NCBI GenBank assembly: GCA_041600715.1
Contig: JBFIJM010000001.1
Span: forward strand, 448,387-512,386
Length of the DNA stretch: 64,000 bases
Direction: 5' to 3'
Source: Candidatus Saccharimonadales bacterium
GTDB lineage: Bacteria > Patescibacteriota > Saccharimonadia > Saccharimonadales > 2-12-FULL-41-12
The notes under the pieces are model-generated. The model saw only the letters and a program-made list of their open reading frames with translations, was not told the origin of the DNA and did no database searches. The position numbers and the translations under genes were made by a program. Of this stretch, positions 6,872 through 46,956 are shown piece by piece. Every line of letters starts with the position of its first letter. The stretch's first letter is position 1.

Positions 6872-7723
6872 ATGCCCAAAACTCCTTTTCAGATTTGTTG
6901 GAATCAAGCCAAGCAACGTGCATTAGCCGACGGACTTAAGATTGTTGAGCATGGATGGGAGCAACATGTAATTATTGACGAGCCTAACGGGCTTGTTTAC
7001 CGCTATCCACGCCATCAGGACGCATCAAATAAGCTTGCAGACGAGGTTGCTCTCTTAAGAACGCTAAATCAGTCTGAATGGACGGTTCGTATACCTTTCT
7101 TACGCCATCATACTAACCAATATTCTGTTTACGATTATATCCCTGGGTCAGTAGTAGACAGTAAAGTAGCCCGGCTTCTTAGCGATAACGAGACCGCAAA
7201 TCTGGGTCATGACCTAGGGCTTTTCCTCGCCCAATTACATGGAGTGAGCACCAAAATTATTGAAGAAAAGATGACAAAACAAACTATGAGCTTGCTTAAC
7301 TACTACTGTCAAAGGATTAATCACGGCAAAAAATCTGAGTTTTATAAAAAAGCCTGCCAAGATCTTGACCAAATAATTGGTCATCCTGCTGTAGCCCACA
7401 CTGTAGTTCACGGCGATCTTCATGGATTAAATATGGTTATTGACTCTAAAACCAAGCAGTTGGTGGGAGTAATCGATTTTAGCGAACTGGAAATTGGTGA
7501 TCCACACCAGGACTTTCGTAAATTATTCATGACTGACGAGCGTCTTCTTGCTCCGAGTCTCGAGAAGTACGGTGATGTGACGGGCAAAAAACTATCCGAG
7601 GAAATTGTAAAAGCATGGGCATATGTAAACGAATGGGCCAATGTATGTTTTTATTATCAGACGCCTAGCAACCCAACCTACAGGCGCGCATATGGCCATC
7701 TTAAAAAATGGTCTCGGCTCTAG
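6872..7723 (+). CDS. Aminoglycoside/choline-kinase-like phosphotransferase (APH family)
   Basis: Catalytic loop VVHGDLHGLNMVID and downstream VIDFSELEIGDPHQDF (Brenner/DFG-like motifs of the APH fold). Confidence 0.65.
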   Translation: MPKTPFQICWNQAKQRALADGLKIVEHGWEQHVIIDEPNGLVYRYPRHQDASNKLADEVALLRTLNQSEWTVRIPFLRHHTNQYSVYDYIPGSVVDSKVARLLSDNETANLGHDLGLFLAQLHGVSTKIIEEKMTKQTMSLLNYYCQRINHGKKSEFYKKACQDLDQIIGHPAVAHTVVHGDLHGLNMVIDSKTKQLVGVIDFSELEIGDPHQDFRKLFMTDERLLAPSLEKYGDVTGKKLSEEIVKAWAYVNEWANVCFYYQTPSNPTYRRAYGHLKKWSRL

Positions 7724-7726
7724 TTC

Positions 7727-9175
7727 TTACTCGGGCTGATCGTGCTTAGGGAACAACGTGTCATCTAGTTTTTGGACTACCCCTGCAGAAAATGTATTGT
7801 TAATTTTCTTTGCAGTATCGGGCATAAATGGCTGTAATAACTGAGCTATTTCTAGCAAACAGCTCGACATGTAGGCCAACACTTCTCGCAAGTGATCTTC
7901 CTCATTATTCTTTGCTAGCACCCACGGCTTTTCTTCTTCTATGTATTGATTTAACCCACGTACCTGTTCCCACACTTCTTCAAGAGCTTTATCGAATCGA
8001 CATTCAGAAAGCGCAGAATGATACTTAGCAACATCATGTTCTGCGCCAGGAATATCACCTATGACACCGTCTTGATACTTAGTTATCATTGCAGTGGTAC
8101 GACTAACAGCATTACCTAGCTCGTTTGCTAGTTCATTGTTGTAGACCGCTTCAAACCTTTCCCATGTAAAATCACCGTCATCATAACTTGGCATATGCCG
8201 AAGCAAGTAATAACGTAATGCATCTATTCCATACTTATCTACAATTTCTTTAGGATGAATTCCATTATCTAATGACTTGCTCACCTTTTGTCCGTCAATA
8301 TTCAAGAACCCGTGGACATACAAAGTTTTGGGCAATGGCAATCCCAGGCCTAGTAACATTCCTGGCCAAATCGCAGCATGAAAACGAGAAATGTCCTTAC
8401 CAACTACTTGCACATCTGCCGGCCAAAATGTCTTAAAGTCCTGGTGTTCTGGGTAGCCAAGTACTGTTATGTAGTTCATCAACGCTTCAAACCATACATA
8501 CATAACCTGAGTTTCGTCATCAGGCACCGGTACACCCCAGGTAATCTTATCCTTCGGTCGAGAAATACTGATGTCATGCAATCCCTCTTTTACAACACTG
8601 AGGATTTCATTCTTTCGGCTGGTGGGAATAATTTTAAATTCACCCTTCATGATAGACGCACAAATAGTGTCAGAAAAAGCACTCAGCTTGAAGAAGTAGT
8701 TTTCTTCTAACAGCTTTTCGTATGAGCGGTTATGTTGTGGGCATACATTATTGTTCTCTTTTACTACAGCCTCTGTAACAAAGGCTTCACAACCCGTACA
8801 GTACCAACCTTCATAGTTTTTCTTGTAAATATGTTTCGATAGAGCTTTCCATATCAAAGAAGCCCTCTGTTCATGCCCAGGGTCGGTTGTCCTAATAAAT
8901 CGGTCGTTGCTCATGTTTATCAGTGGACCAAGCTCACGCCAACGATCACTCATTTCTTTAGCGTATTCTTTAACAGGCTTACCTAGCTCATTAGCCTTTT
9001 CTTCTACCTTGCCTCCGTGTTCGTCTGTGCCGGTGCTCAGTAGCACATTCTTACCCTGAGAACGTGCGTATCTGGCCAGCACATCAGCCGTCAACAACTC
9101 ATAAGTATGCCCTATATGAGGATCGCCGTTAATGTACGGTATGGACGTAGTTATATAAAATTTTTCTTGATTCAT
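7727..9175 (-). CDS. metG: Methionyl-tRNA synthetase (minimal form, no C-terminal tRNA-binding domain)
   Basis: HIGH motif (PYINGDPHIGH), KMSKS variant (KVSKSLDN), Cys knuckle CTGCEAF...CPQH. Confidence 0.95.
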   Translation of the reverse strand: MNQEKFYITTSIPYINGDPHIGHTYELLTADVLARYARSQGKNVLLSTGTDEHGGKVEEKANELGKPVKEYAKEMSDRWRELGPLINMSNDRFIRTTDPGHEQRASLIWKALSKHIYKKNYEGWYCTGCEAFVTEAVVKENNNVCPQHNRSYEKLLEENYFFKLSAFSDTICASIMKGEFKIIPTSRKNEILSVVKEGLHDISISRPKDKITWGVPVPDDETQVMYVWFEALMNYITVLGYPEHQDFKTFWPADVQVVGKDISRFHAAIWPGMLLGLGLPLPKTLYVHGFLNIDGQKVSKSLDNGIHPKEIVDKYGIDALRYYLLRHMPSYDDGDFTWERFEAVYNNELANELGNAVSRTTAMITKYQDGVIGDIPGAEHDVAKYHSALSECRFDKALEEVWEQVRGLNQYIEEEKPWVLAKNNEEDHLREVLAYMSSCLLEIAQLLQPFMPDTAKKINNTFSAGVVQKLDDTLFPKHDQPE

Positions 9176-9291
9176 TAGGTTACTTTCGATTGGTTAATAA
9201 TTTACTATGTGCAGACTAAGAAATTATGCCCAGTCAGGCATCCTGCGACCAAAGTTATTAACACTTATAATCATACTAATAGTATAGCAGA

Positions 9292-10910: not shown

Positions 10911-11313
10911 GGGGCTGACTTTAAGCTCGACATTGAACCTTTACAGATAAATCCGCGTGTCGCTTGTCCAGCGTTATAGGACAAACCCTTTAAATGCAAC
11001 ATTTAAAGACGCACGTGCAGCAGTAGCTAACCTCTTTGAGCGCAGTAACTTTGCATTTGCAACAGCCTAAGTTAATTCTTAGTGCCACCTACTACTACGA
11101 CACCAGATAGAAGTAGCAGGTGTTATATCATCTGGTTGCTGTAAGTCCCGTATGTTTTCCGGAATTTACCTAAGACTTTGAAAACTGCTGATTCTGTATT
11201 TTTGTTTGTTTACCGTATAGGGTCAAAAGAAATTTCAAGCAAACTACGCACGTAGAATATTTATCAATGTATAGTCGATGGACGCGGAGGGCAGTGCTCC
11301 GCCAGCTCCACCA
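10911..11313 (+). ncRNA. ssrA: tmRNA (transfer-messenger RNA)
   Basis: 5' GGGGCTGACTTTAAGCTCGAC and 3' GGACGCGGAG-GGCAGTG-CTCCGCCAGCTCCACCA, giving an acceptor stem with the G3:U pair and encoded CCA. Internal tag frame ends ...ANLFERSNFAFATA-TAA (stop 11068-11070). Flanked by a promoter and a terminator. Confidence 0.9.
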
Positions 11314-11346
11314 AAAAAAACACCAACAAGCATTGGTGTTTTTTTG
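11314..11346 (+). terminator. Rho-independent terminator of ssrA
   Basis: A-run, CACCAA-caagca-TTGGTG hairpin, then a T8 run. Confidence 0.8.
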
Positions 11347-11607
11347 TTACTTAATGTAGTTATTTACGCTTCTTCTTGATTCCGCCTATCAGGCGACTAT
11401 CGAATCGCCATAGTTCAAATGTTTCCGAATCCCTTATGTAGTACCTGTATAATCCCGTCATAAGACCCCCTCTTACACCCCTACTATAACGCTCAGTTAG
11501 CAGTTAGAGTGTGATATATATTACACAAATATTTACTAGTGGAACTAATGTTGTAGAATATTTTGATCTATTGCCCCCTCGGTAGGAATGTAGCAGAATA
11601 CTAGACA

Positions 11608-11991
11608 ATGAGGACTACAAAGAATGGCGCTCTTTTTCCTATCAACTCTCTAGAGAAAGTAGCCGTCTTTGATGCGGTAGAGTTTTATCTACATGAACAA
11701 CAAGATAATCCATATGATAAAGGTGAGTCATGGCTCGGAGACGAGCTATCATTACTAAGAATTCGTGAGCGATTAAGACCACACGTAGATAGGTTCTACT
11801 CTGGAATGTACAGTAACTTAGACGTGACAATTGACGATAGACTACTTTTCAACCCTGAGGATACACGTTTGCTCGGCAACGTTATGCTCCACACAGCATA
11901 TTTTAATTCCAACCAAGTCTTGGGTAACTATTGCCTAACATTACTCGACGAAGTACGAAAAGATTCTAGCGATCGAATTAATATTTCCTAA
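11608..11991 (+). CDS. Hypothetical protein (127 aa), orphan-like
   Basis: Intact ORF. Plus strand within a long minus-strand run. No motif recognised. Confidence 0.5.
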   Translation: MRTTKNGALFPINSLEKVAVFDAVEFYLHEQQDNPYDKGESWLGDELSLLRIRERLRPHVDRFYSGMYSNLDVTIDDRLLFNPEDTRLLGNVMLHTAYFNSNQVLGNYCLTLLDEVRKDSSDRINIS

Positions 11992-12088
11992 TCTCATTTA
12001 CGGGCAATAACCCCAGAAACCATTAAGAAGTCCGGTTACTAAGTGACATAAATCACCGTGAACTTTAGTCTTATCGGTCATTATATAA

Positions 12089-12625
12089 ATGGGATGGTAT
12101 GCAATGTTACAGAATGAATCAAATAATTCCAGTGGTCAGGAAACATTAGAAAACCAGGTGTTTTCTATTTATGAATCTGTGGCACAAGAAGTCGACAAGA
12201 TTGCAAATGGACATAACGATAATGCCCGGGAGCAATTCCGGCTAGTTGTACGCGAATTACTCCAATCTGGAGTAGATCGGGTTGAGAATGGCCTTAAGAA
12301 CGGGCACCCCAGCATGATTCACAGGCAGTGGGTTATCAGCGAAAGAAATGCGATAGTAAATGAAGAACGAGTAGGTCTTATTGGTGAGCGTGCAGACGCA
12401 GAACTTGGTAAGTTAATTGTCGGAAAATGCGTATCCGTAAGCTCAGAAGACACCATTTCGCCAATAAGAGGCCGTGTAGAGAAGACAAACGCTCTGCTAG
12501 GGGTGTTAACTATTCGCTCAGATCAAGAAGACGCACCAACAGAAGTTTTTCTTTTTGACGAAGAGGACAACGGAGAACGATCAAGTAGAGTTAACCTGCA
12601 ATTTACTGATCAATCAGACAAATGA
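12089..12625 (+). CDS. Hypothetical protein (178 aa), orphan-like
   Basis: Intact ORF. Its 3' end overlaps the convergent rsmA by 12 nt. No motif recognised. Confidence 0.5.
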   Translation: MGWYAMLQNESNNSSGQETLENQVFSIYESVAQEVDKIANGHNDNAREQFRLVVRELLQSGVDRVENGLKNGHPSMIHRQWVISERNAIVNEERVGLIGERADAELGKLIVGKCVSVSSEDTISPIRGRVEKTNALLGVLTIRSDQEDAPTEVFLFDEEDNGERSSRVNLQFTDQSDK

Positions 12626-22968: not shown

Positions 22969-23043
22969 GGCCTCATCGTCTAACGGTTAGGACACCAGGT
23001 TTTCATCCTGGCAATCGGGGTTCGATTCCCCGTGAGGTCACCA
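22969..23043 (+). tRNA. tRNA-Glu (anticodon TTC), CCA encoded
   Basis: Manual cloverleaf: GGCCTCA/TGAGGTC acceptor, anticodon stem CCAGG/CCTGG with loop TTTTCAT, T arm CGGGG-TTCGATT-CCCCG. Confidence 0.9.
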
Positions 23044-23079
23044 ATCTAAAAACCCCAGCTTCGTCTGGGGTTTTTAGAT
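23044..23079 (+). terminator. Hairpin terminator directly after tRNA-Glu
   Basis: ATCTAAAAACCCCA / TGGGGTTTTTAGAT 14-bp arms with 8-nt loop; A/T tracts on both sides. Confidence 0.8.
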
Positions 23080-23080
23080 T

Positions 23081-23206
23081 GGCAGGCTCACTCGAGCCAG
23101 CCCGAAACCCGCAGTGGTTCGTTCATGACGATCACGCACAGGAGTTTACTCCGAGCATGTGAGGGGAAATGGTTGTCGCTAAGCGACAACGGATTCCGTG
23201 AGGTCA
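23081..23206 (+). other. tRNA-Glu-linked structured insert ending in a degenerate copy of the tRNA 3' end
   Basis: Ends with GATTCCGTGAGGTCA (23192-23206), against tRNA GATTCCCCGTGAGGTCA (23024-23040). Contains hairpins at 23032-23062 and GTTGTCGC-taa-GCGACAAC (23172-23190). Confidence 0.45.
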
Positions 23207-23357: not shown

Positions 23358-24122
23358 TTATATCCTACTCAGACGCCGAGTAAATAAGTGGTGACCAGCT
23401 GTCGCAAGAGTGACAGTACTAGCAAAAAGTACAAAGACTCCTCCCGCACCAGCTTCCGGCAGTACACTCGGCTGGGATGACTGCGATGACGGACTTGTTC
23501 TATCTGTAGGTTTTATTGGTGTCGAAGGAGTGGGCGGAGGAGTTACTGGTGGGGTTACAGGAGGTTGTTCTGGTGGCGTCACTGGTGGCTGAGGACAATC
23601 TACCTTTGCTTTAAATTGGACAAATCGTTTTTCGTTAACCGATACGCCAACGTCGCCTATTGGTACCCCTGATCCACTAGTTACGTCTGAGATACCACGA
23701 ATAAACTCACTGTTTGGCCCAAGCAACTGACTACTTCCTGGAATATAAGCAATCTTTTGGGGTGTAGAGAGATTAACAGTGGCAGTGTCAGACGTATTTG
23801 ACGGACTAGCGTTGCTTGCTCTAATCACAATAGATGAAATATTTTGCGCAGATGAAGCTGTCCCAAACACTGCCTGAACTGTCACACCGGTTAAAGCCTC
23901 GTCTGGCCCAGGATTATGTATTCGTACTTTATATTGCAGAATATCGCATTTATCAGCCAAGGCTGGGTCACTAAAATCGGTACCTTTTGTAACATTACGA
24001 ACCCTATAGATATCTCCACCCTCTGCATATGGCGCCGCAAAAGTCTGTGCCGGCATAGCGGTAATTAACACTGCCAGCCCGAGGACCGCCATAAAACTTT
24101 TGATTGATGCTTGGACCCTCAT
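23358..24122 (-). CDS. LPXTG-type cell-wall-anchored surface protein (254 aa)
   Basis: Signal peptide; beta-rich domain; PPVTPP-rich stalk; C-terminal sorting signal LPEAG plus hydrophobic stretch plus RRLSRI. Confidence 0.8.
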   Translation of the reverse strand: MRVQASIKSFMAVLGLAVLITAMPAQTFAAPYAEGGDIYRVRNVTKGTDFSDPALADKCDILQYKVRIHNPGPDEALTGVTVQAVFGTASSAQNISSIVIRASNASPSNTSDTATVNLSTPQKIAYIPGSSQLLGPNSEFIRGISDVTSGSGVPIGDVGVSVNEKRFVQFKAKVDCPQPPVTPPEQPPVTPPVTPPPTPSTPIKPTDRTSPSSQSSQPSVLPEAGAGGVFVLFASTVTLATAGHHLFTRRLSRI

Positions 24123-25690: not shown

Positions 25691-27304
25691 TTAGGCGACT
25701 GAACGTCGGGCTACAACATAGTAGTAAGCCATAGTACTCGCAGTTGTTACTGCTAAGAACGTAAGTACTGCACTTCCAGCACCTGTCTCAGGCAATTTAC
25801 CTGGGGTTGTTGATACAGGAGTAGTTGGAGTTCCAGGAGTCGTAAATGTAATTGATGTAGCACACTGGTTTCCATCTACTATGAATGTCTCGTTATCTAC
25901 TGCGATCTGAACTTTGAGTCGAGTAGCATACTGACCATCACGTGCATATGTATGCTCAACAACTCTCTGGTCAGTAACGAATTCTTCGCTACCATCACCG
26001 TAGTTAAAGATATAACGCTGGATAGTTGCACCATTGATAGCACTTGCGTTAGCGGTAAATCGTATTTTTCGCCCGCCAATTTTTTCTGCTGTTAATGAGT
26101 CACAGCTATATTCTGGAGTTATGTCTTCATCGCAATCTTCACGAGTGATAACCACGTCTGCAGTATCTCTTACTTCAGTAGGTGTTTGCTTAGAACGAGC
26201 TAGTGCAATATTTCGCACTCGCTTCTGACATTCCTCAAAATCGCCAGATACTGTAGTGTCGAAGATTACGTATCGTCCGCCACCCGAGTTATAAGTCCCG
26301 AGACCTATACCGCCGTTACTGAATACCGGCGCATCTGCTTGTACTCGATCGCCATTCTCATCAATAACTCTTACTGAGCCGTTAACTAAACTTACATGAG
26401 GAGGAAGAACATCGCGTACTGCAACCTCATCTATAGTATCAAGGCCAAGGTTTTTGGTAGAAAGTAGCCATTGAACTCGATCACCTGGCTTTGTCTGAAC
26501 TTCTCGCTTCCAGTCTGTTTCACCAGCTTTTCTTACTTCTTTTACAAGTTGAAGTTCATTGCTTTGTTCTGGGGTAATTTTCAATCGTAACTCGACAACA
26601 CCTTCGTACTCGAAACAGCCAGGAAGGTTACCGTTGAGTGAATCCCATCCGATCTGAGTACCACCGCTAACAATAGAGTCGCTAAGTTGTACTCCGCCAG
26701 CAAATGGCCCGTTGTTATAGAAGGTAGCTGAACCTGGAACGAATTGAACATTGAAAGGTCGGCTAGCGGTCATATCAACTGAGTCAACCACTTCTCTTGG
26801 AGTAGCATTGTCAGCAGTGATTGAAGCTACTGCACGAAGTGCGCTACCTGTGTTTGTTGGTAGCTCTACGCTTACTCGTGTGTTCTTGGCAACACCAAGT
26901 CCACTTGCATTGGTTGTTTGGTTTGCATTGTTGTGAACATACATTCGCAATACAACTTCTTTAGTACCTTCAGTAACATCTGTTACTACATCATATGCAA
27001 CACCTGGCTGATCAGCACGACGGCCGTCAAAGAAGGCTCGTTCGTCTCCGTAACCTGGAGTATTAACAAATGAGTTAAATACAGGACCATTTAATGAGCC
27101 ACAGCGACCATTCTGTGCGCCTGGATCGTTAGGGTCGTTACAGTTACTACTATCGCTACCTTTATTGTAGTCAAATGTTGGCCTATCAGCTGGGAAGAAC
27201 CCTGCGCTTACTGCGAACGGAGCAACGGCTATGCCGACTACCGCTACTGCAACCGCCAACTTAGCCTTACTGCTAAGAGAACGGATTTTATTTAAAATAT
27301 TCAT
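25691..27304 (-). CDS. LPXTG-anchored surface protein with PKD domain
   Basis: Start set to ATG 27304 (MNILNKIRS), which has a GGAGA Shine-Dalgarno 8 nt upstream. Signal peptide; domain homologous to the 254-aa protein; PKD-like IRFTANAS...YIFNYGDGS...HTYARDGQY; C-terminal LPETG plus hydrophobic stretch plus RRSVA. Confidence 0.85.
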   Translation of the reverse strand: MNILNKIRSLSSKAKLAVAVAVVGIAVAPFAVSAGFFPADRPTFDYNKGSDSSNCNDPNDPGAQNGRCGSLNGPVFNSFVNTPGYGDERAFFDGRRADQPGVAYDVVTDVTEGTKEVVLRMYVHNNANQTTNASGLGVAKNTRVSVELPTNTGSALRAVASITADNATPREVVDSVDMTASRPFNVQFVPGSATFYNNGPFAGGVQLSDSIVSGGTQIGWDSLNGNLPGCFEYEGVVELRLKITPEQSNELQLVKEVRKAGETDWKREVQTKPGDRVQWLLSTKNLGLDTIDEVAVRDVLPPHVSLVNGSVRVIDENGDRVQADAPVFSNGGIGLGTYNSGGGRYVIFDTTVSGDFEECQKRVRNIALARSKQTPTEVRDTADVVITREDCDEDITPEYSCDSLTAEKIGGRKIRFTANASAINGATIQRYIFNYGDGSEEFVTDQRVVEHTYARDGQYATRLKVQIAVDNETFIVDGNQCATSITFTTPGTPTTPVSTTPGKLPETGAGSAVLTFLAVTTASTMAYYYVVARRSVA

Positions 27305-27333
27305 AGTAATTTCTCCTCTATTCATTTCTTAGA

Positions 27334-37735: not shown

Positions 37736-37739
37736 CGCA

Positions 37740-37767
37740 AGAACCGTCCTTCTGGGCGGTTTTTTCG
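37740..37767 (+). terminator. Hairpin + T-run terminator directly after tRNA-Lys (proximal)
   Basis: AACCGTCC-ttct-GGGCGGTT followed by TTTTT. Confidence 0.7.
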
Positions 37768-37904
37768 TGATTGATCTTTGGGGTCACGAATTCATGACAC
37801 GCCAAAGGGTGGAGAGGGTGAGGATTGCCTGTGGCAATCTGCAAGGGAGACAACTCTTGCAAACTGGTTTGCAGAGATGTTGCGACGGGGTCGCAGAATG
37901 TGAC

Positions 37905-37925
37905 CGAGTCCCTCCTGGCCCTCCA
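37905..37925 (+). repeat. Second copy of the tRNA-Lys 3' end (21/21 identical to 37715-37735)
   Basis: Direct reading of both copies. Confidence 0.95.
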
Positions 37926-37963
37926 AACTAAAATACCCTACCTTGCCGTAGGGTATTTTAGTT
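37926..37963. terminator. Second (distal) hairpin terminator following the duplicated tRNA-Lys end
   Basis: AAACTAAAATACCCTAC-cttgcc-GTAGGGTATTTTAGTTT, 17-bp arms. Confidence 0.75.
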
Positions 37964-38063
37964 TGGTGTTTTGGGCGGACTCAAACCTGAGACTTGGATT
38001 TTCTTCAGAAAATACAGTTATCGAGCGGTTCGGTCGACAAAGTCGTGCGCTTGCCCCTCCTTG
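37964..38063 (+). other. Second, older-looking tRNA-linked insert (related to the one after tRNA-Arg-TCT)
   Basis: Shares GGTTCGGTCGACAAAGTC (38027-38044, 16/18 with 43867-43884) and GTGCGCTTGCCCCTCC (38045-38060) with the 43.9-kb insert. Ends in a degenerate T-arm/acceptor-like CCCCTCCTTGG. Confidence 0.35.
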
Positions 38064-38100
38064 GGTGTTTTTAATCTAGATCCACAGCAATTAAATTAGA

Positions 38101-38646
38101 CTACTTATCGGAATCTGGTGCTTGCAAGCGTTTTTGAGGCTTATTTTCTTCGTGGGCTTTAAGAGTTTGGGTAAGGACATTGATCATACTTTGGGCATGT
38201 TCACGACTCATCCCTATTCTACTCACTACCGCTGGTTGTTGCATACCAGGGGCTTGCTGTAAGAACTGAAGTATAACGCCGTGATCATTTACATTAGCCT
38301 GCATGGAATCGCTGTATACAACACGATTATCAACCGGCATATACATAACAACTTGCTTATTAATAATATCTTCTAAGACGCTAGATACAACGTCTGCTGT
38401 ATCCTGACTTCCTTCTGCAAGTTCTCTTAGATCATCTGCTTGGTCTTCAGTAAGTAAGAAATGACTAATCAACATATCTAGCATTTCTGCAGAAGGGAGT
38501 TGCTTACCAGATTCAATAGAATGAAGTGCACTCTGATCTATCTCAAGAGTTCCTGATACTTCATCAACAGATTGTTGCCATTGCTCTCGCAGGAACTTTA
38601 TGCGAGCCCCAAAGGCAGAATAAGGTTGGTCGTTCTGATTTCCCAT
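38101..38646 (-). CDS. XRE-family HTH protein with uncharacterised C-terminal domain (181 aa)
   Basis: N-terminal HTH_3-like segment FGARIKFLREQWQQSVDEVSGTLEIDQSALHSIESGKQLPSAEML. Confidence 0.6.
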   Translation of the reverse strand: MGNQNDQPYSAFGARIKFLREQWQQSVDEVSGTLEIDQSALHSIESGKQLPSAEMLDMLISHFLLTEDQADDLRELAEGSQDTADVVSSVLEDIINKQVVMYMPVDNRVVYSDSMQANVNDHGVILQFLQQAPGMQQPAVVSRIGMSREHAQSMINVLTQTLKAHEENKPQKRLQAPDSDK

Positions 38647-42013: not shown

Positions 42014-43540
42014 GTGATCATGACCAACACAAACGAAAAAATAGGACAGTTAATTTATCAGATCAGGCAAGAGCGTGGTTTTACACAAGCTGAGTTTGCA
42101 AGAAGACTTGGCACCAGTCAATCAGCCGTAAACCGTATCGAAAAAGGTCGACAGAACCTCAGTCTAGAGACATTAGGTAGAATTAGCGACGTACTCAATA
42201 AGCAGATCATTAGCCTCGGTGGAGGTGCGGTAAACCTAAGGATAGAAGGCGGACATGAACTCAAAGGGAGCATAGAAACTAAGGTTTCTAAAAATGCTGC
42301 GGTTTGTTTGTTATTCGCTGCGCTTCTAAACAAAGGCACCACAAGACTTAAGCGTATGCCGAGAATAGAAGAAGTAAACCGACTTATAGAAGTACTGACA
42401 AGCATAGGAGTAAAAGTCCGATGGATGGCTAATAACGACTTAGAGATTCGACCACCAGAAGTCCTGCTACTCGACAAGATGGATAAAACCGCTGCCCGAA
42501 AAACACGTAGTGTGATCATGATGCTAGGTCCTCTAATGCATCTGTTTGATGAGTTCAAAATCCCCTATGCAGGGGGGTGTAAACTTGGGAGCAGGACTGT
42601 TCAGCCACATCTCTTCGCTCTTGAAGAATTTGGAGTTAACATTACTGCTAAGACCGGTCATTATCATGTTGTCGCCAAACACAAAATTCCTGAAACAATA
42701 ATATTATACGAATCTGGCGATACAACCACAGAGAACGTCATCATGGCAGCATCCCGCGTAGACGGAGAGGTAACAATTAAGATGGCTAGTGCTAATTATA
42801 TGGTTCAGGATCTCTGTTATTTCTTAAAAAAACTTGGCGTTAAGATTTCAGGAATAGGCACCAGTACTCTTGTTATTCGTGGCGTAAAAAATATTCGAAA
42901 GAACGTTACTTATCATCCATCTGAAGACCCAATAGAGTCAATGACATTTATAGCAGCAGCGGTTACTACAAACTCCAGTATTACAGTTAAGCGTGCACCG
43001 ATAGAGTTTGTGGAGTTAGAACTTTTAAAACTTAAAAAAATGGGTCTTTCTTTTGATGTCAGCCCTCATTACAAGGCTAACAATGGGTACACAGACCTTG
43101 CCGATATTACTATCCATAAACATGACGGTAAACTTACAGCTTTAGAGGAAAAAATTTATGCTCGTCCATTCCCTGGCCTAAACATCGACAATCTACCGTA
43201 TTTCGTGCCGATTTCTGCAGTAGCGAAAGGTCGCACTCTTATACACGACTGGGTGTATGAAGAAAGAGCACTTTATTATACCGAGATGCGCAAACTTGGA
43301 GTGAATGTCACGCTAGCTGATCCTCATAGAGCTTACATAGATGGGCCAACAAAATGGAGCGTTGCAGACGTAGTATGCCCTCCCGCCCTTCGTCCAGCGG
43401 TCCTACTGCTCATTGGTATGCTAGCAGCACCTGGTACTTCTATCCTACGTAATGTCTATTCTATCAATCGTGGATACGAGGATCTTGCCGAAAGACTAAA
43501 TCAAATCGGTGCTCAGATAGAAATTATCAACGATCTATAA
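42014..43540 (+). CDS. murA: XRE-type HTH domain fused to UDP-N-acetylglucosamine 1-carboxyvinyltransferase
   Basis: Residues ~8-65 are HTH_3-like (IRQERGFTQAEFARRLGTSQSAVNRIEKGRQNLSLETL). The remainder is MurA-like (SKNAAV Lys motif, catalytic Cys in PYAGGCKLGSRTVQPHL, two-lobed EPSP-synthase-fold length). Confidence 0.8.
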   Translation: MIMTNTNEKIGQLIYQIRQERGFTQAEFARRLGTSQSAVNRIEKGRQNLSLETLGRISDVLNKQIISLGGGAVNLRIEGGHELKGSIETKVSKNAAVCLLFAALLNKGTTRLKRMPRIEEVNRLIEVLTSIGVKVRWMANNDLEIRPPEVLLLDKMDKTAARKTRSVIMMLGPLMHLFDEFKIPYAGGCKLGSRTVQPHLFALEEFGVNITAKTGHYHVVAKHKIPETIILYESGDTTTENVIMAASRVDGEVTIKMASANYMVQDLCYFLKKLGVKISGIGTSTLVIRGVKNIRKNVTYHPSEDPIESMTFIAAAVTTNSSITVKRAPIEFVELELLKLKKMGLSFDVSPHYKANNGYTDLADITIHKHDGKLTALEEKIYARPFPGLNIDNLPYFVPISAVAKGRTLIHDWVYEERALYYTEMRKLGVNVTLADPHRAYIDGPTKWSVADVVCPPALRPAVLLLIGMLAAPGTSILRNVYSINRGYEDLAERLNQIGAQIEIINDL

Positions 43541-43798: not shown

Positions 43799-43835
43799 AA
43801 ATAAAACACCTATTATTTGATAGGTGTTTTATTTT
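43799..43835. terminator. Hairpin terminator directly after tRNA-Arg-TCT
   Basis: AAAATAAAACACCTAT-tatttg-ATAGGTGTTTTATTTT. Confidence 0.8.
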
Positions 43836-43937
43836 GACAGCTAGCTGAAGCGGGCATCGAACCACAGGTTCGGTCGCCCAAGTCACGCACAAGAATGAAT
43901 TCCGAGCATGACTGCAGGCGTGCGCTACCCCTCCCGA
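43836..43937 (+). other. tRNA-Arg-TCT-linked structured insert, related to those after tRNA-Glu and tRNA-Lys
   Basis: Contains TCACGCACAAGAATGAATTCCGAGCATGAC (43883-43912, ~80% identical to 23032-23061) and blocks shared with 38027-38060. Ends in CCCTCCCG (43930-43937), matching the tRNA T-arm/acceptor junction 43783-43790. Confidence 0.4.
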
Positions 43938-45849: not shown

Positions 45850-45865
45850 GTCGGGGTGAAAGGAC
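45850..45865 (-). repeat. Second copy of the tRNA-Pro 3' end (16/16 identical to 46021-46036)
   Basis: GTCGGGGTGAAAGGAC read directly at both positions. Similarity continues imperfectly into the flanks. Confidence 0.95.
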
Positions 45866-46020
45866 ATTGCACTTTGTGCTCCTCCGCTCAATCGTGCTCA
45901 ATGCAAGCTTTTGCGCGCGATTTCGCTACGCCAAACCTTCCGTTCGCTTTGCTCACTCATCAGGTTATTGTCACTTCGGAAAAATTAATATAGCCTAGCA
46001 AAGCTAAGCTATATTAATTG
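45850..46020 (-). mobile_element. 171-bp insert between tRNA-Pro and its distal terminator, bounded by duplicated tRNA 3' end
   Basis: Same architecture as at tRNA-Lys: tRNA, proximal terminator (45978-46018), ~110-nt GC-richer hairpin-rich segment, repeat, distal terminator. No ORF. Confidence 0.35.
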
Positions 46021-46152: not shown

Positions 46153-46956
46153 TTAGACAGATTCAATGACTTGATGGATATGTTCAACGTTTGTAGCCAA
46201 ACCCGTTATCTCATCTACTGCAACAAGTAGCGCATTAAATTGAAACGGTGGGTTAAATTCTATCTCGTTCTTACTAACTTTTCCTGACTTCCACCTCTCT
46301 ATAATCACACTCGTCTTTACACCTAAGGAGCTGTGTAACGCTCCACACATGCCAACATCTGTAACATGCGCGGTCCCCCTAGGAAGAATCATTGCGTCTG
46401 CAGTTGGCACATGCCAGTGGTCGCCCACAACGGCGCTTACTCGACCGTCTAGATAGTACCCAAAGACACGTTTTTCGCTAGAATAATCTCCATGAAAATT
46501 AACAATTCGGGCTACTAAATTTGTTTCTGAAGTATGCTCTAAAATTTCATCAATTACCGTGAGCGGGTTCACTAAATCATGCTTACGTGACCCTACAGTT
46601 TGCCCCAAAATACTAGCTACAAGAATTTTGCCTTTTGGAGTACTAACTATCTTATATCCATGCCCCTGAGTATTAGCTAAATTAGCAGGTCTAATTATTG
46701 GCATTAAGTCGTCGCTATATACATCTGACGAGCCACTACCTAGTAAGCTATGATTACCTCCAGTGAAAAAATCGACGCCAGCAACGCGCATTTGTTCCAG
46801 GTGTTGAAGGCCAGGGCCTTTGCCAGTATCATCACTATTTTCTGCCTGGGCAATAACGAAATCCACTGAGTAAGATTTTTTTATACTAGGTAGTAAGGCG
46901 TCAACAACACCCCTCCCTGGCTCTGCCATCACGTCGCCAACATAGAGTATATTCAT
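46153..46956 (-). CDS. ymdB: YmdB-family metallophosphoesterase (2',3'-cyclic-nucleotide phosphodiesterase-like)
   Basis: ILYVGDVMAEPGR, AQAENS, GGNHS, NFHGDYSSEK, GDHWHVPTAD motifs. Conserved linkage with rny. Confidence 0.82.
   Translation of the reverse strand: MNILYVGDVMAEPGRGVVDALLPSIKKSYSVDFVIAQAENSDDTGKGPGLQHLEQMRVAGVDFFTGGNHSLLGSGSSDVYSDDLMPIIRPANLANTQGHGYKIVSTPKGKILVASILGQTVGSRKHDLVNPLTVIDEILEHTSETNLVARIVNFHGDYSSEKRVFGYYLDGRVSAVVGDHWHVPTADAMILPRGTAHVTDVGMCGALHSSLGVKTSVIIERWKSGKVSKNEIEFNPPFQFNALLVAVDEITGLATNVEHIHQVIESV

Follow-up and report, generated by a model that had tools for sequence, protein, structure and literature searches.

A degenerate copy of the tRNA-Glu 3' end closes a member of a previously undescribed family of structured, gene-less elements in Saccharibacteria

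The tRNA-Glu locus and its element

The window, that is the whole 64-kb stretch of DNA that was analysed, carries an intact tRNA-Glu(UUC) gene and, downstream of it, a degenerate repeat of the tRNA 3' end. The repeat closes a discrete element (23044-23206) composed of a terminator hairpin, two hairpins, a structured core and a tRNA tail. The features are:

22969-23043, + strand: tRNA-Glu(UUC), intact, CCA encoded (ARAGORN; Rfam tRNA, 62.4 bits)
23024-23040, + strand: upstream repeat copy GATTCCCCGTGAGGTCA, consisting of the 3' part of the T-loop, the 3' strand of the T-stem, the 3' strand of the acceptor and the discriminator (from the sequence)
23044-23079, + strand: term1, terminator-like hairpin with 15-bp arms (ATCTAAAAACCCCAG / CTGGGGTTTTTAGAT) and a 6-nt loop
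23085-23098, + strand: P1, small hairpin GGCTC-ACTC-GAGCC
23103-23121, + strand: P2, hairpin CGAAACCC-GCAG-TGGTTCG
23122-23171, + strand: conserved core of type A ("TTCATGA" subfamily; motif, covariation and covariance model)
23134-23159, + strand: 26-nt core motif ACGCACAGGAGTTTACTCCGAGCATG
23172-23190, + strand: P4, hairpin GTTGTCGC-TAA-GCGACAAC (from the sequence)
23192-23206, + strand: tail, a decayed copy of tRNA-Glu positions ~58-73 with a 2-nt deletion in the T-stem strand and loss of CCA

A sequence-only reading of this DNA had taken GATTCCCCGTGAGGTCA (23024-23040) and GATTCCGTGAGGTCA (23192-23206) for copies that differ by a 2-nt CC deletion, and this was borne out. The downstream copy reads GATTCC--GTGAGGTCA, lies 168 nt 3' of the first and is followed by ATA, not CCA; its exact 15-mer occurs once within the 64-kb window. 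The locus shows the arrangement of the T-loop class, namely a direct repeat running from the T-loop to the 3' end of a tRNA with an intact tRNA at one copy, the Glu match being 15/17 with a 2-nt deletion. A chance test of this match, which had also been called for, was run: the best local match between the last 25 nt of tRNA-Glu and the 400 nt downstream scored 24, a value that 0.08% of 5000 dinucleotide-preserving shuffles attained (P~8e-4 for the repeat taken by itself). Far stronger support than this statistic alone is provided by the recurrence of the layout at other tRNAs. It was seen at tRNA-Lys (copy of 21/21 nt, +169) and tRNA-Pro (16/16, +153), as had been proposed, in decayed form at tRNA-Arg(UCU), and at dozens more tRNA genes elsewhere.

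The hairpin reported earlier at 23044-23079 is real, with 15-bp arms and a 6-nt loop; it has GGGG-TTTTT embedded, and the inverted repeat reaches 23032-23091, i.e. into the tRNA-Glu end. By eye, a CCCCAG/CTGGGG stem followed by TTTTT is recognised; a simple consensus terminator scan calls none here, in our own reading because the T-run sits inside the extended stem. A hairpin of this type opens every unit of the family. At the place of P1, the homologue in a distant Saccharibacteria MAG (L002) has GTTCGC-ACTA-GCGAAC, i.e. a changed stem sequence with pairing retained. The 3' arm of P2 repeats the T-arm 5' half in sense orientation (..GGTTCG), and the 5' arm is complementary to it. The core is located between G57 and A58/59 of the T-loop copy, and the tRNA-Glu 3' end lies 90 nt upstream of the 26-nt motif. 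The TCAC..GGAG-TTTA-CTCC..GTGA hairpin of the sequence-only reading exists, but its position of 23032-23062 was off by 100 and had to be corrected to 23132-23162. The perfect 8-bp hairpin at 23172-23190 (P4) was found as described, and most type A members have a hairpin at this position. No ORF is present within the 148-nt interval between the Glu repeats, and hence no integrase or recombinase gene lies inside.

Four elements were identified in the window, those behind tRNA-Glu, tRNA-Pro and tRNA-Arg(UCU) with a core of type A and that behind tRNA-Lys with a core of type B:

37736-37925, + strand: element behind tRNA-Lys(CUU); core of type B (GTGAG-hairpin-TGCAAGG...); perfect 21-nt tail at 37905-37925
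37926-38075, + strand: second, degenerate unit behind the Lys element, with a terminator, a ACTCAAACC...GGTTCG hairpin, a short core and the diverged tail CCCCTCCTTGGGTGT (read from the sequence)
43799-43936, + strand: decayed element behind tRNA-Arg(UCU); core of type A with a diverged apical hairpin; tail reduced to CCCTCCCG
45850-46018, - strand: element behind tRNA-Pro(UGG); core of type A; perfect 16-nt tail at 45850-45865

The window copies are strongly diverged among themselves, the three type A copies sharing core motifs only. Near-identical copies within one genome, as expected of PATEs, are absent among them, and nothing therefore points to recent transposition within this genome.

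A family of structured elements behind tRNA genes

The Glu copy belongs to a previously undescribed family of ~150-190-nt, gene-less and highly structured elements in Saccharibacteria, which end in a copy of the last ~18 bases of their own tRNA. They were found behind about half of the tRNA genes examined (4/7 in the window, 3/6 related tRNA-Glu loci). A search with the 26-nt core motif yielded 98 instances on 94 metagenome contigs; the sample was retrieved by the exact motif and is biased towards core-bearing units. A tRNA on the same strand ended about 85-120 nt upstream of the motif in 66 of the 98 instances, the linked tRNAs representing 14 amino-acid specificities and 23 anticodons. Instances with no tRNA nearby were mostly located at contig ends or behind inserted islands. 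Most instances terminate in a copy of the 3' end of their own tRNA, with tails of 14-24 nt that mostly stop exactly at CCA, where the similarity ceases. The tail matched its own tRNA far better than other tRNAs in 36/52 units (at least the 95th percentile), which upholds the earlier derivation of the 15-mer from the tRNA end.

The core helix P3 was paired in 91% of cells, compared with about 35% for slid partners, and both sides were changed in 12 of 18 pairs. It contains conserved G.A oppositions, and G.U outnumbered A.C by 29 to 13 on the tRNA-sense strand. This covariation supports the folding of a single strand, that of tRNA sense. A covariance model built without the Glu copy matched it at 23113-23187 (E=4e-8), and also matched the Arg-UCU copy, which was outside the training set (43864-43933, E=1e-6), and the Pro copy, which was included in it (45859-45940); 14 non-Saccharibacteria control loci gave no match. 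The Glu copy combines a match to the type A model, a place behind a tRNA and a tRNA-derived tail.

Type A cores always follow GGTTCG (GTTYG in copies away from tRNAs) and type B cores follow GGT. As in PATE-type elements, the cores, taken by themselves, have a fixed motif on their 5' side, one orientation and no target duplication. Cores at different tRNAs were 94% identical with unrelated left parts, one locus (L105) contains the two core types at two different positions of one T-loop copy, and away from tRNAs the same core is also found capping long hairpins. In tandem arrays the tRNA-proximal tail was the best or equally well preserved: five arrays had decayed distal tails, in five all tails were perfect and in none was the order reversed. 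Copies of the left half-site were tRNA-specific in 15 (sense) and 11 (antisense) of 52 units, with 2.6 expected. Strict tRNA-specificity of P2 was rejected, tRNA-specific bases on both arms being found in a subset of family members only. A better conservation of the antisense P2 arm is contradicted by the count (antisense above sense in 14 units, below it in 28). An interpretation of the TGGT after the terminator as antisense ACCA was dismissed because the CCA:TGG clamp is shared by a terminator at a tRNA that has no element (L003) and by the downstream Lys terminator.

Comparison of the related tRNA-Glu loci, as suggested by the sequence-only reading, gave three occupied (L002, L004, L008) and three empty sites (L003, L006, L007), i.e. 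occupied and empty sites among distant relatives, not strains. At the same tRNAs, syntenic relatives differed in the subfamily or the number of units. Exact-protein look-ups for strain polymorphism returned the same assembly only. Two contigs end 27 nt apart inside the 3' part of tRNA-Glu, which was attributed to repeated T-arm k-mers. The homologue in L002 is located at an identical tRNA-Glu and shows 85% identity to the Glu copy in P2, 82% in the core, 61% in the terminator and 58% in the flank. Its tail has decayed differently, in agreement with the earlier view of an old and decayed repeat. The Glu copy is old, its core and P2 being kept by purifying selection and its displaced tail decaying. 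Strong purifying selection acts on the core even in copies with dead tails and in copies far from any tRNA.

Downstream of the element, the presence of LPXTG-type neighbours was confirmed, the ORFs at 23358-24122 and 25691-27325 having LPEAG/LPETG sorting-type ends. The only related locus that shares the MPG/tRNA-Glu arrangement (L007) is unoccupied and is followed by another gene; with proteins about 65% identical, it gives little information on whether the tRNA might bound a hotspot for the LPXTG cluster. In relatives (L111, L119), tRNA-Glu 3' ends harbour islands with large serine recombinases, so that the site is a real integration target. The junction of these islands is not that of the elements, lying in the last ~6 nt (..TCACCA), and their end motif differs as well.

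Searches for known families and partner genes were carried out at several levels. Rfam gave tRNAs and tmRNA only for the whole window at the gathering threshold, no match to the elements and no guide-RNA family for the Glu and Lys regions at E<=10, and only tRNAs, plus one LOOT RNA elsewhere, for 17 related loci. The literature search gave no match to the element family. No recombinase, transposase or reverse transcriptase was found in or adjoining the elements, and none was seen among the window ORFs that were scanned or read. Clustering of all ORFs of the 94 loci (520 kb) gave housekeeping synteny only and no recurrent protein family near the elements. On the contigs with the exact motif, none of the 98 instances had an ORF inside or abutting the core, and no TnpA- or TnpB-encoding relative was found. 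Phage, plasmid and IMG/VR collections contained no free or autonomous form; one phage hit (L081) was a chance match inside a phage gene. Small peptide genes were discarded, since the ORFs running through the Lys and Glu elements into their tails are not conserved in L002 or L004. A hammerhead or other self-cleaving ribozyme was likewise discarded, the CUGAUGA of the Pro copy not being conserved in other members and Rfam giving no support. Resemblances to group II intron domain V, K-turn and box C/D are loose and by eye only.

Interpretation of the units

The explanation that we consider best, and to which we give about an even chance, is that the units are non-autonomous site-specific insertion modules at tRNA genes, which rebuild the tRNA end and add a terminator. 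On the tRNA strand, a unit consists, in this order, of tRNA 3' end, terminator hairpin, P1, P2 (3' arm ..GGTTCG), core and tRNA copy from ~59 to CCA. The module would enter the tRNA gene at the T-loop/3' end, and its insertion would rebuild the tRNA 3' end, supply a new terminator and displace the old 3' end downstream, which would be the logic of tRNA-using integrative elements shrunk to gene-less size. The core may be a module that is exchanged separately and always inserted at one fixed point of the T-loop sequence. No core-less unit was found in the sample, which is biased by its retrieval with the core motif, and a two-layer picture of unit and inserted core is for this reason not directly demonstrated. 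Anatomy, family membership, linkage to tRNAs, covariation, turnover among relatives and the lack of linked genes are observed; mobility, past or present, the point of entry and a trans-acting enzyme are what we infer. Several points speak against insertion modules: the absence of a recombinase, transposase or reverse transcriptase in or adjoining the elements, of a recurrent protein family near them and of a free or autonomous form in the collections searched, the divergence of the window copies and the strong selection on the core. In addition, one enzyme acting on >20 tRNA targets is hard to reconcile with classical integrases, and the element must already bear the right 3' end for its target.

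A chance similarity or meaningless local duplication has next to no probability as the source of the repeat. A 15/17 match with one gap is short and T-arm sequence is common, but this reading is already refuted by the shuffle test, by the match of the interval between the repeats to the covariance model and by a layout seen four times in the window and dozens of times beyond. We regard it as very improbable that the interval is the eroded attL...attR remnant of a larger island or prophage in tRNA-Glu with its interior deleted. The direct repeat from the T-loop onward would suit this origin, such repeats belonging to the T-loop class of integrase sites reportedly described by Williams in 2002, as would the serine-recombinase islands at tRNA-Glu in relatives and the accessory LPXTG cluster nearby. 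The family data already contradict it, however: independent erosion would not yield the same 150-190-nt architecture and 26-nt motif behind >20 tRNAs in many genomes, covarying helices are not expected of it, and the serine-recombinase islands use another junction and end motif. The sequence-only picture of a mere terminator and hairpins left by integration is not supported, the interval being a complete member of a conserved family with covarying structure.

It is rather unlikely that the units are functional RNA genes, host-beneficial or domesticated, whose expression comes from read-through of the tRNA or from a promoter not recognised as such. The tRNA-derived pieces would then be functional and not scars, and a structured scaffold would carry a single-stranded 3' tail with the sequence of the tRNA 3' end, possibly acting as a decoy or spare part for damage to the tRNA 3' end or T-loop, as a precursor resembling 3' tRNA fragments or as a regulator of tRNA processing. 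Such a role is suggested by the covariation and the conserved, non-canonical oppositions of purines in the tRNA-sense strand, by the retention of core and P2 between distant lineages, by the same core tipping long hairpins away from tRNAs, and by the many tails that run perfectly to CCA in otherwise diverged units. It is also suggested by the recurrent tandem G.A motifs (P3; P2 apex GUGAGC..GCGAAC), such motifs being typical protein-binding RNA modules. The strong selection on the core, even with a dead tail or far from a tRNA, suits a functional RNA at least as well as a selfish element. Yet a strong terminator-like hairpin precedes each unit and no promoter-like site was found; presence, number and type vary at the same tRNA among relatives, half of the tRNAs have no unit, and tandem copies pile up and decay. 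In the Glu and Arg copies of the window and in L002, tails decay while cores stay, which means that the tail is not essential to whatever conserves the core. We think it improbable that the unit supplies the guide RNA of an enzyme whose gene lies elsewhere and which is of the TnpB/IscB OMEGA, TIGR-Tas or IS110 bridge-RNA kind. In this case the core would be the scaffold, the 3' tail the guide to the tRNA gene and the T-loop bases (GGTT / TTCG) the adjacent motif; some P2 antisense arms would, across the T-loop, read the opposite DNA strand, and the junction would differ by type because each enzyme has its own adjacent motif. The arrangement of a scaffold followed by a 16-21-nt 3' segment identical to DNA beside a fixed short motif agrees with this, as do the type-specific starts after GGTTCG and GGT, which can share one T-loop copy, and the tRNA-specific half-site copies on both strands. 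IS200/IS605 elements and their guide RNAs have the same order of motif, element and matching flank with no target duplication. Against it stand the absence of a tnpA, tnpB, iscB, tas or IS110 gene adjoining any unit and of an Rfam match to IS605-orfB, HEARO or other guide families; moreover, the intact tRNA gene would itself be a perfect target, with a lethal outcome in the case of a nuclease, cores are conserved where the guide is dead, and the antisense arm, which by prediction pairs inside P2, is no better kept than the sense arm. In favour of guide RNAs, TIGR systems with dual-strand guides are documented in CPR bacteria (PMC12045711). With a similarly low probability, the units may be programmable homing or targeting devices, in which an RNA or folded strand pairs with the cognate tRNA gene on both sides of the T-loop and directs an unlinked enzyme. 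Pairing would take place between the 3' tail and the bottom strand of positions ~59-76 and, for a part of the units, between the antisense arm of P2 and the top strand of ~44-57; the adjacent motif would be provided by the invariant bases of the T-loop, and the RNA would direct the enzyme to insert or maintain the unit at the tRNA gene. Such devices, if real, would add to the OMEGA, TIGR or bridge-RNA systems a relative in CPR bacteria that has no genes and is directed by tRNAs. In a second variant of this low-probability kind, the tail would be set free to serve as a replacement 3' piece for tRNAs that have been cleaved in the T-loop.

To our knowledge, Saccharibacteria and other CPR bacteria have tiny genomes with few recognised mobile elements, and about half of the tRNA genes examined here bear a conserved gene-less element. 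If they are insertion modules, as we prefer, the units are among the smallest site-specific mobile elements known and imply that some enzyme recognises the universal T-arm; if they are RNAs instead, they make up a new and abundant class that is coupled to tRNAs physically and in sequence. Either way, the elements account for the recurrent tRNA-end repeats, can be used as a marker for Saccharibacteria contigs and should be masked when genomic islands are called from tRNA-end repeats.

Comparison with known systems

Like IS200/IS605 derivatives (PATEs) and omega RNAs, the units are small, hairpin-rich and strand-specific, the core lies directly 3' of a fixed motif with no target duplication, and a scaffold is followed by about 16-20 nt of flank. 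Unlike these, they have no tnpA/tnpB relative that could be found, no Rfam match and cores of only about 50-100 nt, and in their case the flank is invariably the 3' end of a tRNA inside a partial tRNA copy and not a random genomic site. With IS110 bridge RNA and the tigRNA of TIGR-Tas, a subset of units shares one segment that is complementary left of the target point and another that is identical to the same strand on its right; in the units the two segments reach about 12 and 18 nt, which is much longer, the antisense one pairs inside the unit, and there is no Tas or IS110 gene nearby and no short-repeat array.

Integron attC sites and CTX-phage attP resemble the units in a one-strand structure that is conserved over sequence, with imperfect hairpins and unpaired bases, and in tandem accumulation at one chromosomal site with the newest copy beside the entry site. 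The units differ from them in having no integron integrase or attI, in the tRNA T-arm as target and in the very high conservation of part of the core sequence.

Tycheposons are integrative elements at tRNA genes of Prochlorococcus (bioRxiv 10.1101/2020.12.28.424599). Their repeated insertion is said to generate arrays of partial tRNA repeats beside the tRNA. Like prophages, islands and tycheposons, the units have an intact tRNA at one end and a displaced T-loop-to-3'-end copy at the other, would supply a new 3' end and terminator, and would stack partial tRNA repeats on repeated insertion. Unlike them, the units measure 150-190 nt with no integrase and no cargo, and belong to one family at >20 tRNAs; the T-arm copy at their far junction is split inside the T-loop by a structured core, and an antisense T-arm 5' half is present.

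Units behind the tRNA genes of the window

The window comes from a Saccharibacteria genome (TM7, CPR) and has a G+C content of 42 %. Its features are listed here (positions counted within it):

22969-23043: tRNA-Glu(UUC)
23024-23040: upstream repeat copy GATTCCCCGTGAGGTCA, within tRNA-Glu
23044-23079: terminator-like hairpin, 15-bp arms
23132-23162: TCAC...GTGA hairpin enclosing GGAG-TTTA-CTCC
23172-23190: 8-bp hairpin
23192-23206: downstream repeat copy with 2-nt deletion, 168 nt beyond GATTCCCCGTGAGGTCA
37736-38075 (+): Lys element, type B, then a second unit; perfect 21-nt tail at 37905-37925
43799-43936 (+): type A element, decayed, in the gap from tRNA-Arg(UCU), which it follows, to tRNA-His

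The echo of the tRNA-Glu end with its deletion, the terminator-like hairpin and the 8-bp hairpin are present as the sequence-only reading had described; the TCAC...GTGA hairpin also exists, at 23132-23162 and not at 23032-23062 as stated there. The layout was said to resemble that of Lys and Pro, and tRNA-Lys(CUU) and tRNA-Pro(UGG) are indeed followed by perfect copies of their own ends (21 nt at +169 and 16 nt at +153, respectively). A second, degenerate short unit with the diverged tail CCCCTCCTTGGGTGT lies behind the Lys unit. The tail of the Arg(UCU) element has shrunk to CCCTCCCG; this element was absent from the earlier reading, which named Lys and Pro only. Four of the seven tRNA genes in the window are occupied; no unit was found behind tRNA-His, Gly, Arg(UCG) or tmRNA. 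Estimates of occupancy draw on this single window and on a few MAG loci.

In the region 10911-12625, a terminator and two ORFs (127 and 178 aa), neither with a Pfam match, come after the tmRNA gene; they might represent a short insertion at its 3′ end, and no repeat of that end was found within 1.5 kb. In Logan assembly SRR29257392 of the same organism, two contigs stop within the 3′ part of tRNA-Glu and overlap there (window ~23005-23032). These ends are attributed to repeated T-arm k-mers, and tRNA/element loci may be places where assemblies of such genomes are prone to break.

Anatomy and age of the units

On the tRNA strand, a unit is ordered as follows:

1: tRNA ending in CCA
2: terminator hairpin, its stem often clamping CCA with TGG
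3: small hairpin P1
4: hairpin P2; 3′ arm ends ..GGTTCG (T-stem 5′ strand and first T-loop bases), 5′ arm complementary
5: core
6: tail; tRNA resumed at about position 59 (ATCC...), usually exactly to CCA

Similarity ceases at the end of the tail (CCA). The CCA:TGG clamp is also found at the terminator of an element-less tRNA (related locus L003). Because P2 ends in ..GGTTCG before the core and the tail resumes at about position 59, the partial tRNA copy in a unit looks like a T-arm and acceptor 3′ strand with the core within the T-loop. The tRNA-derived pieces of 52 units were compared with their own and with other tRNAs by permutation; against a chance expectation of 2.6 units each, the tail was specific to its own tRNA in 36, the P2 sense arm in 15 and the P2 antisense arm in 11. 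The copying of the T-arm 5′ half in both orientations is thus real, and tRNA-specific in a subset only. A conserved G(U/C)GAGC-N3-4-GCGA(A/G)C motif (tandem G.A and two G-C pairs) is frequent at the P2 apex and is seen irrespective of core type in many units, such as window 45941-45975 (-), L122, L171 and L129.

The comparison with relatives that the sequence-only reading had proposed was made on loci fetched from species-representative genomes around homologues of the methylpurine glycosylase adjoining the tRNA-Glu repeat (≤65 % identity to Saccharibacteria MAG proteins). Six Saccharibacteria tRNA-Glu loci were obtained: three are occupied, with perfect copies of 20 nt at +177 (L004) and 18 nt at +193 (L008) or an 11-nt remnant at +131 (L002), and three (L003, L006, L007) have the terminator only. 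One block, ACGCnCAGRAGT..ACTYCGAGCATG, is common to the inserts of L002, L004 and the window, and its hairpin shows compensatory changes. At L012, tRNA-Gln is directly followed by an incomplete copy of another tRNA-Gln allele, whose T-loop is split by the core type of the tRNA-Lys of the window.

The tRNA-Glu of L002 is identical to that of the window and its unit is homologous:

Identity of the Glu unit between the window and L002
P2: 85 %
core: 82 %
P1: 67 %
terminator: 61 %
downstream flank: 58 %

The P1 stem differs in sequence and keeps its pairing; the tails have decayed differently (2-nt deletion and loss of CCA in the window, 11-nt remnant in L002). Conservation of P2 and core beside differently decayed tails indicates that the Glu unit is old, in agreement with the older, decayed event suggested earlier, and that its structured part is under purifying selection and its tail is not.

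Core types, folding and distribution

Type A cores directly follow GGTTCG (in the window Glu, Pro and Arg-UCU) and type B cores directly follow GGT (Lys). Five aligned type B members, behind Lys, Glu, Gln, Arg and Pro tRNAs, show compensatory hairpin changes; further core types are also present. Locus L105 (4649-4925) has two cores in one partial T-arm copy, B after GGT and A after the following CGG, each at its own position of a single T-loop copy. Cores behind tRNA-Ala and tRNA-Glu are 94 % identical with unrelated left parts. The Glu copy belongs to a 'TTCATGA' subfamily that also turns up without a tRNA nearby, at the tips of long palindromes, after GTTTG:

L084: ~1070-1230
L151: ~870-1030
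L093: ~9050-9270
L113: ~7170-7390

The palindrome arms in L093 and L113 are about 24 bp long and TCGGCCTGTTGCTGGAAGCTACAAC-like; these tRNA-distant cores may belong to a related repeat element or form an RNA of their own. Given the shared T-loop copy, the 94 % identical cores and the occurrence of 'TTCATGA' elsewhere, the cores behave as exchangeable modules having a fixed entry point.

In an alignment of 31 type A cores, cells of the proposed helix P3/P4 were paired in 91 % of cases against 33-38 % with slid partners, double changes were found in 12 of 18 pairs (77 cells), and the covariation score was reached by no shuffle. Purine oppositions (A.G, G.A) and a single C.A hardly vary, and G.U exceeds A.C by 29 to 13. 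Pairing, covariation and G.U excess point to folding of a single strand with tRNA-sense polarity, either RNA or single-stranded DNA. A covariance model built from this alignment, with the Glu and Arg-UCU copies outside the training set, matched both (Glu, 23113-23187, E=4e-8; Arg-UCU, E=1e-6; home-made, rough E-values) and had no match in 14 non-Saccharibacteria control loci.

A pattern search with the 26-nt block of the type A core matched 94 metagenome contigs, a set biased towards type A by its retrieval; viral contigs gave one match, by chance. A same-strand tRNA (ARAGORN) ends upstream of the block in 66 of 98 instances, about 85-120 nt away (about 200-300 nt for tandem pairs), with 14 amino-acid specificities and 23 anticodons represented; most of the others stand at the end of a contig or beyond an insert. 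Several loci are relatives, being syntenic with the window (pyruvate kinase 67 %, RNase Y 83 %, SHMT 71-73 %, a 508-aa ORF at 42014-43540 70 % in L117 and L126, and a 267-aa ORF at 46153-46956, adjoining tRNA-Pro, 53 %); their orthologous tRNAs carry other subfamilies or unit numbers. By eye, the 508-aa ORF (+) fuses an XRE-type HTH N-terminus to a MurA-like enzyme.

Arrays, islands and interpretation

Within tandem arrays, no tail is better preserved than the one nearest the tRNA: distal tails are decayed in five, all tails are perfect in five, and the order is reversed in none, which fits entry beside the tRNA. Real islands also occur at unit sites, between tRNA-Glu and the unit:

L111, 1309-6857: 5.6 kb; large serine recombinase abutting the tRNA; PvuII-type R-M pair
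L119, 2295-6668, reverse strand: 4.4 kb; large serine recombinase abutting the tRNA

Their junction lies in the last ~6 nt of the tRNA (..TCACCA), and both share a right-end motif, GGTTCCA-N16-GGTTCACCA, also found in L109 and L085; this junction chemistry differs from that of the units. The L119 island contains a LOOT RNA (Rfam RF03000, 73 bits; L119 2566-2679 (-)), which precedes an ORF of 202 aa. In the window, the gene that comes directly after the Lys elements (38101-38646 (-)) encodes an HTH_31 + DUF3467 protein and may derive from an island; a similar HTH protein was seen by eye towards the right end in L119.

The tRNA-end direct repeat, a terminator that belongs to the element itself, turnover among relatives, proximal-fresh arrays and exchangeable cores together argue for non-autonomous site-specific insertion modules, a reading to which an even chance is given. 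Such modules would be mobile, would enter at the T-loop and would be served by a trans-acting enzyme. The two main rivals are less likely. A functional RNA class is favoured by the selection on the core; terminators, turnover and tails that can be dispensed with speak against it. A guide-RNA device, less likely still, is attractive in that each core type has its own junction position, as would be expected of adjacent motifs, but it has no partner gene and would have the essential tRNA gene itself as its target. That the interval is the remnant of an eroded island, the sense given here to the older event of the sequence-only reading, is so improbable as to be effectively excluded, and chance similarity, which that reading had named as a refutation, is negligible, the tRNA-Glu end repeat by itself having P~8e-4 against dinucleotide shuffles.

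Around the units no cis-linked gene was found, and the window showed no mobility gene (30 ORFs by Pfam scan, the others housekeeping by eye). No Rfam family matches the units, the phage and plasmid collections hold no relative, and literature searches returned no description of them, nor did one on the LOOT RNA bring any information; the closest concepts are tRNA-integrating islands (tycheposons), PATE/omega-RNA elements and the dual-strand guide RNAs of CPR bacteria.
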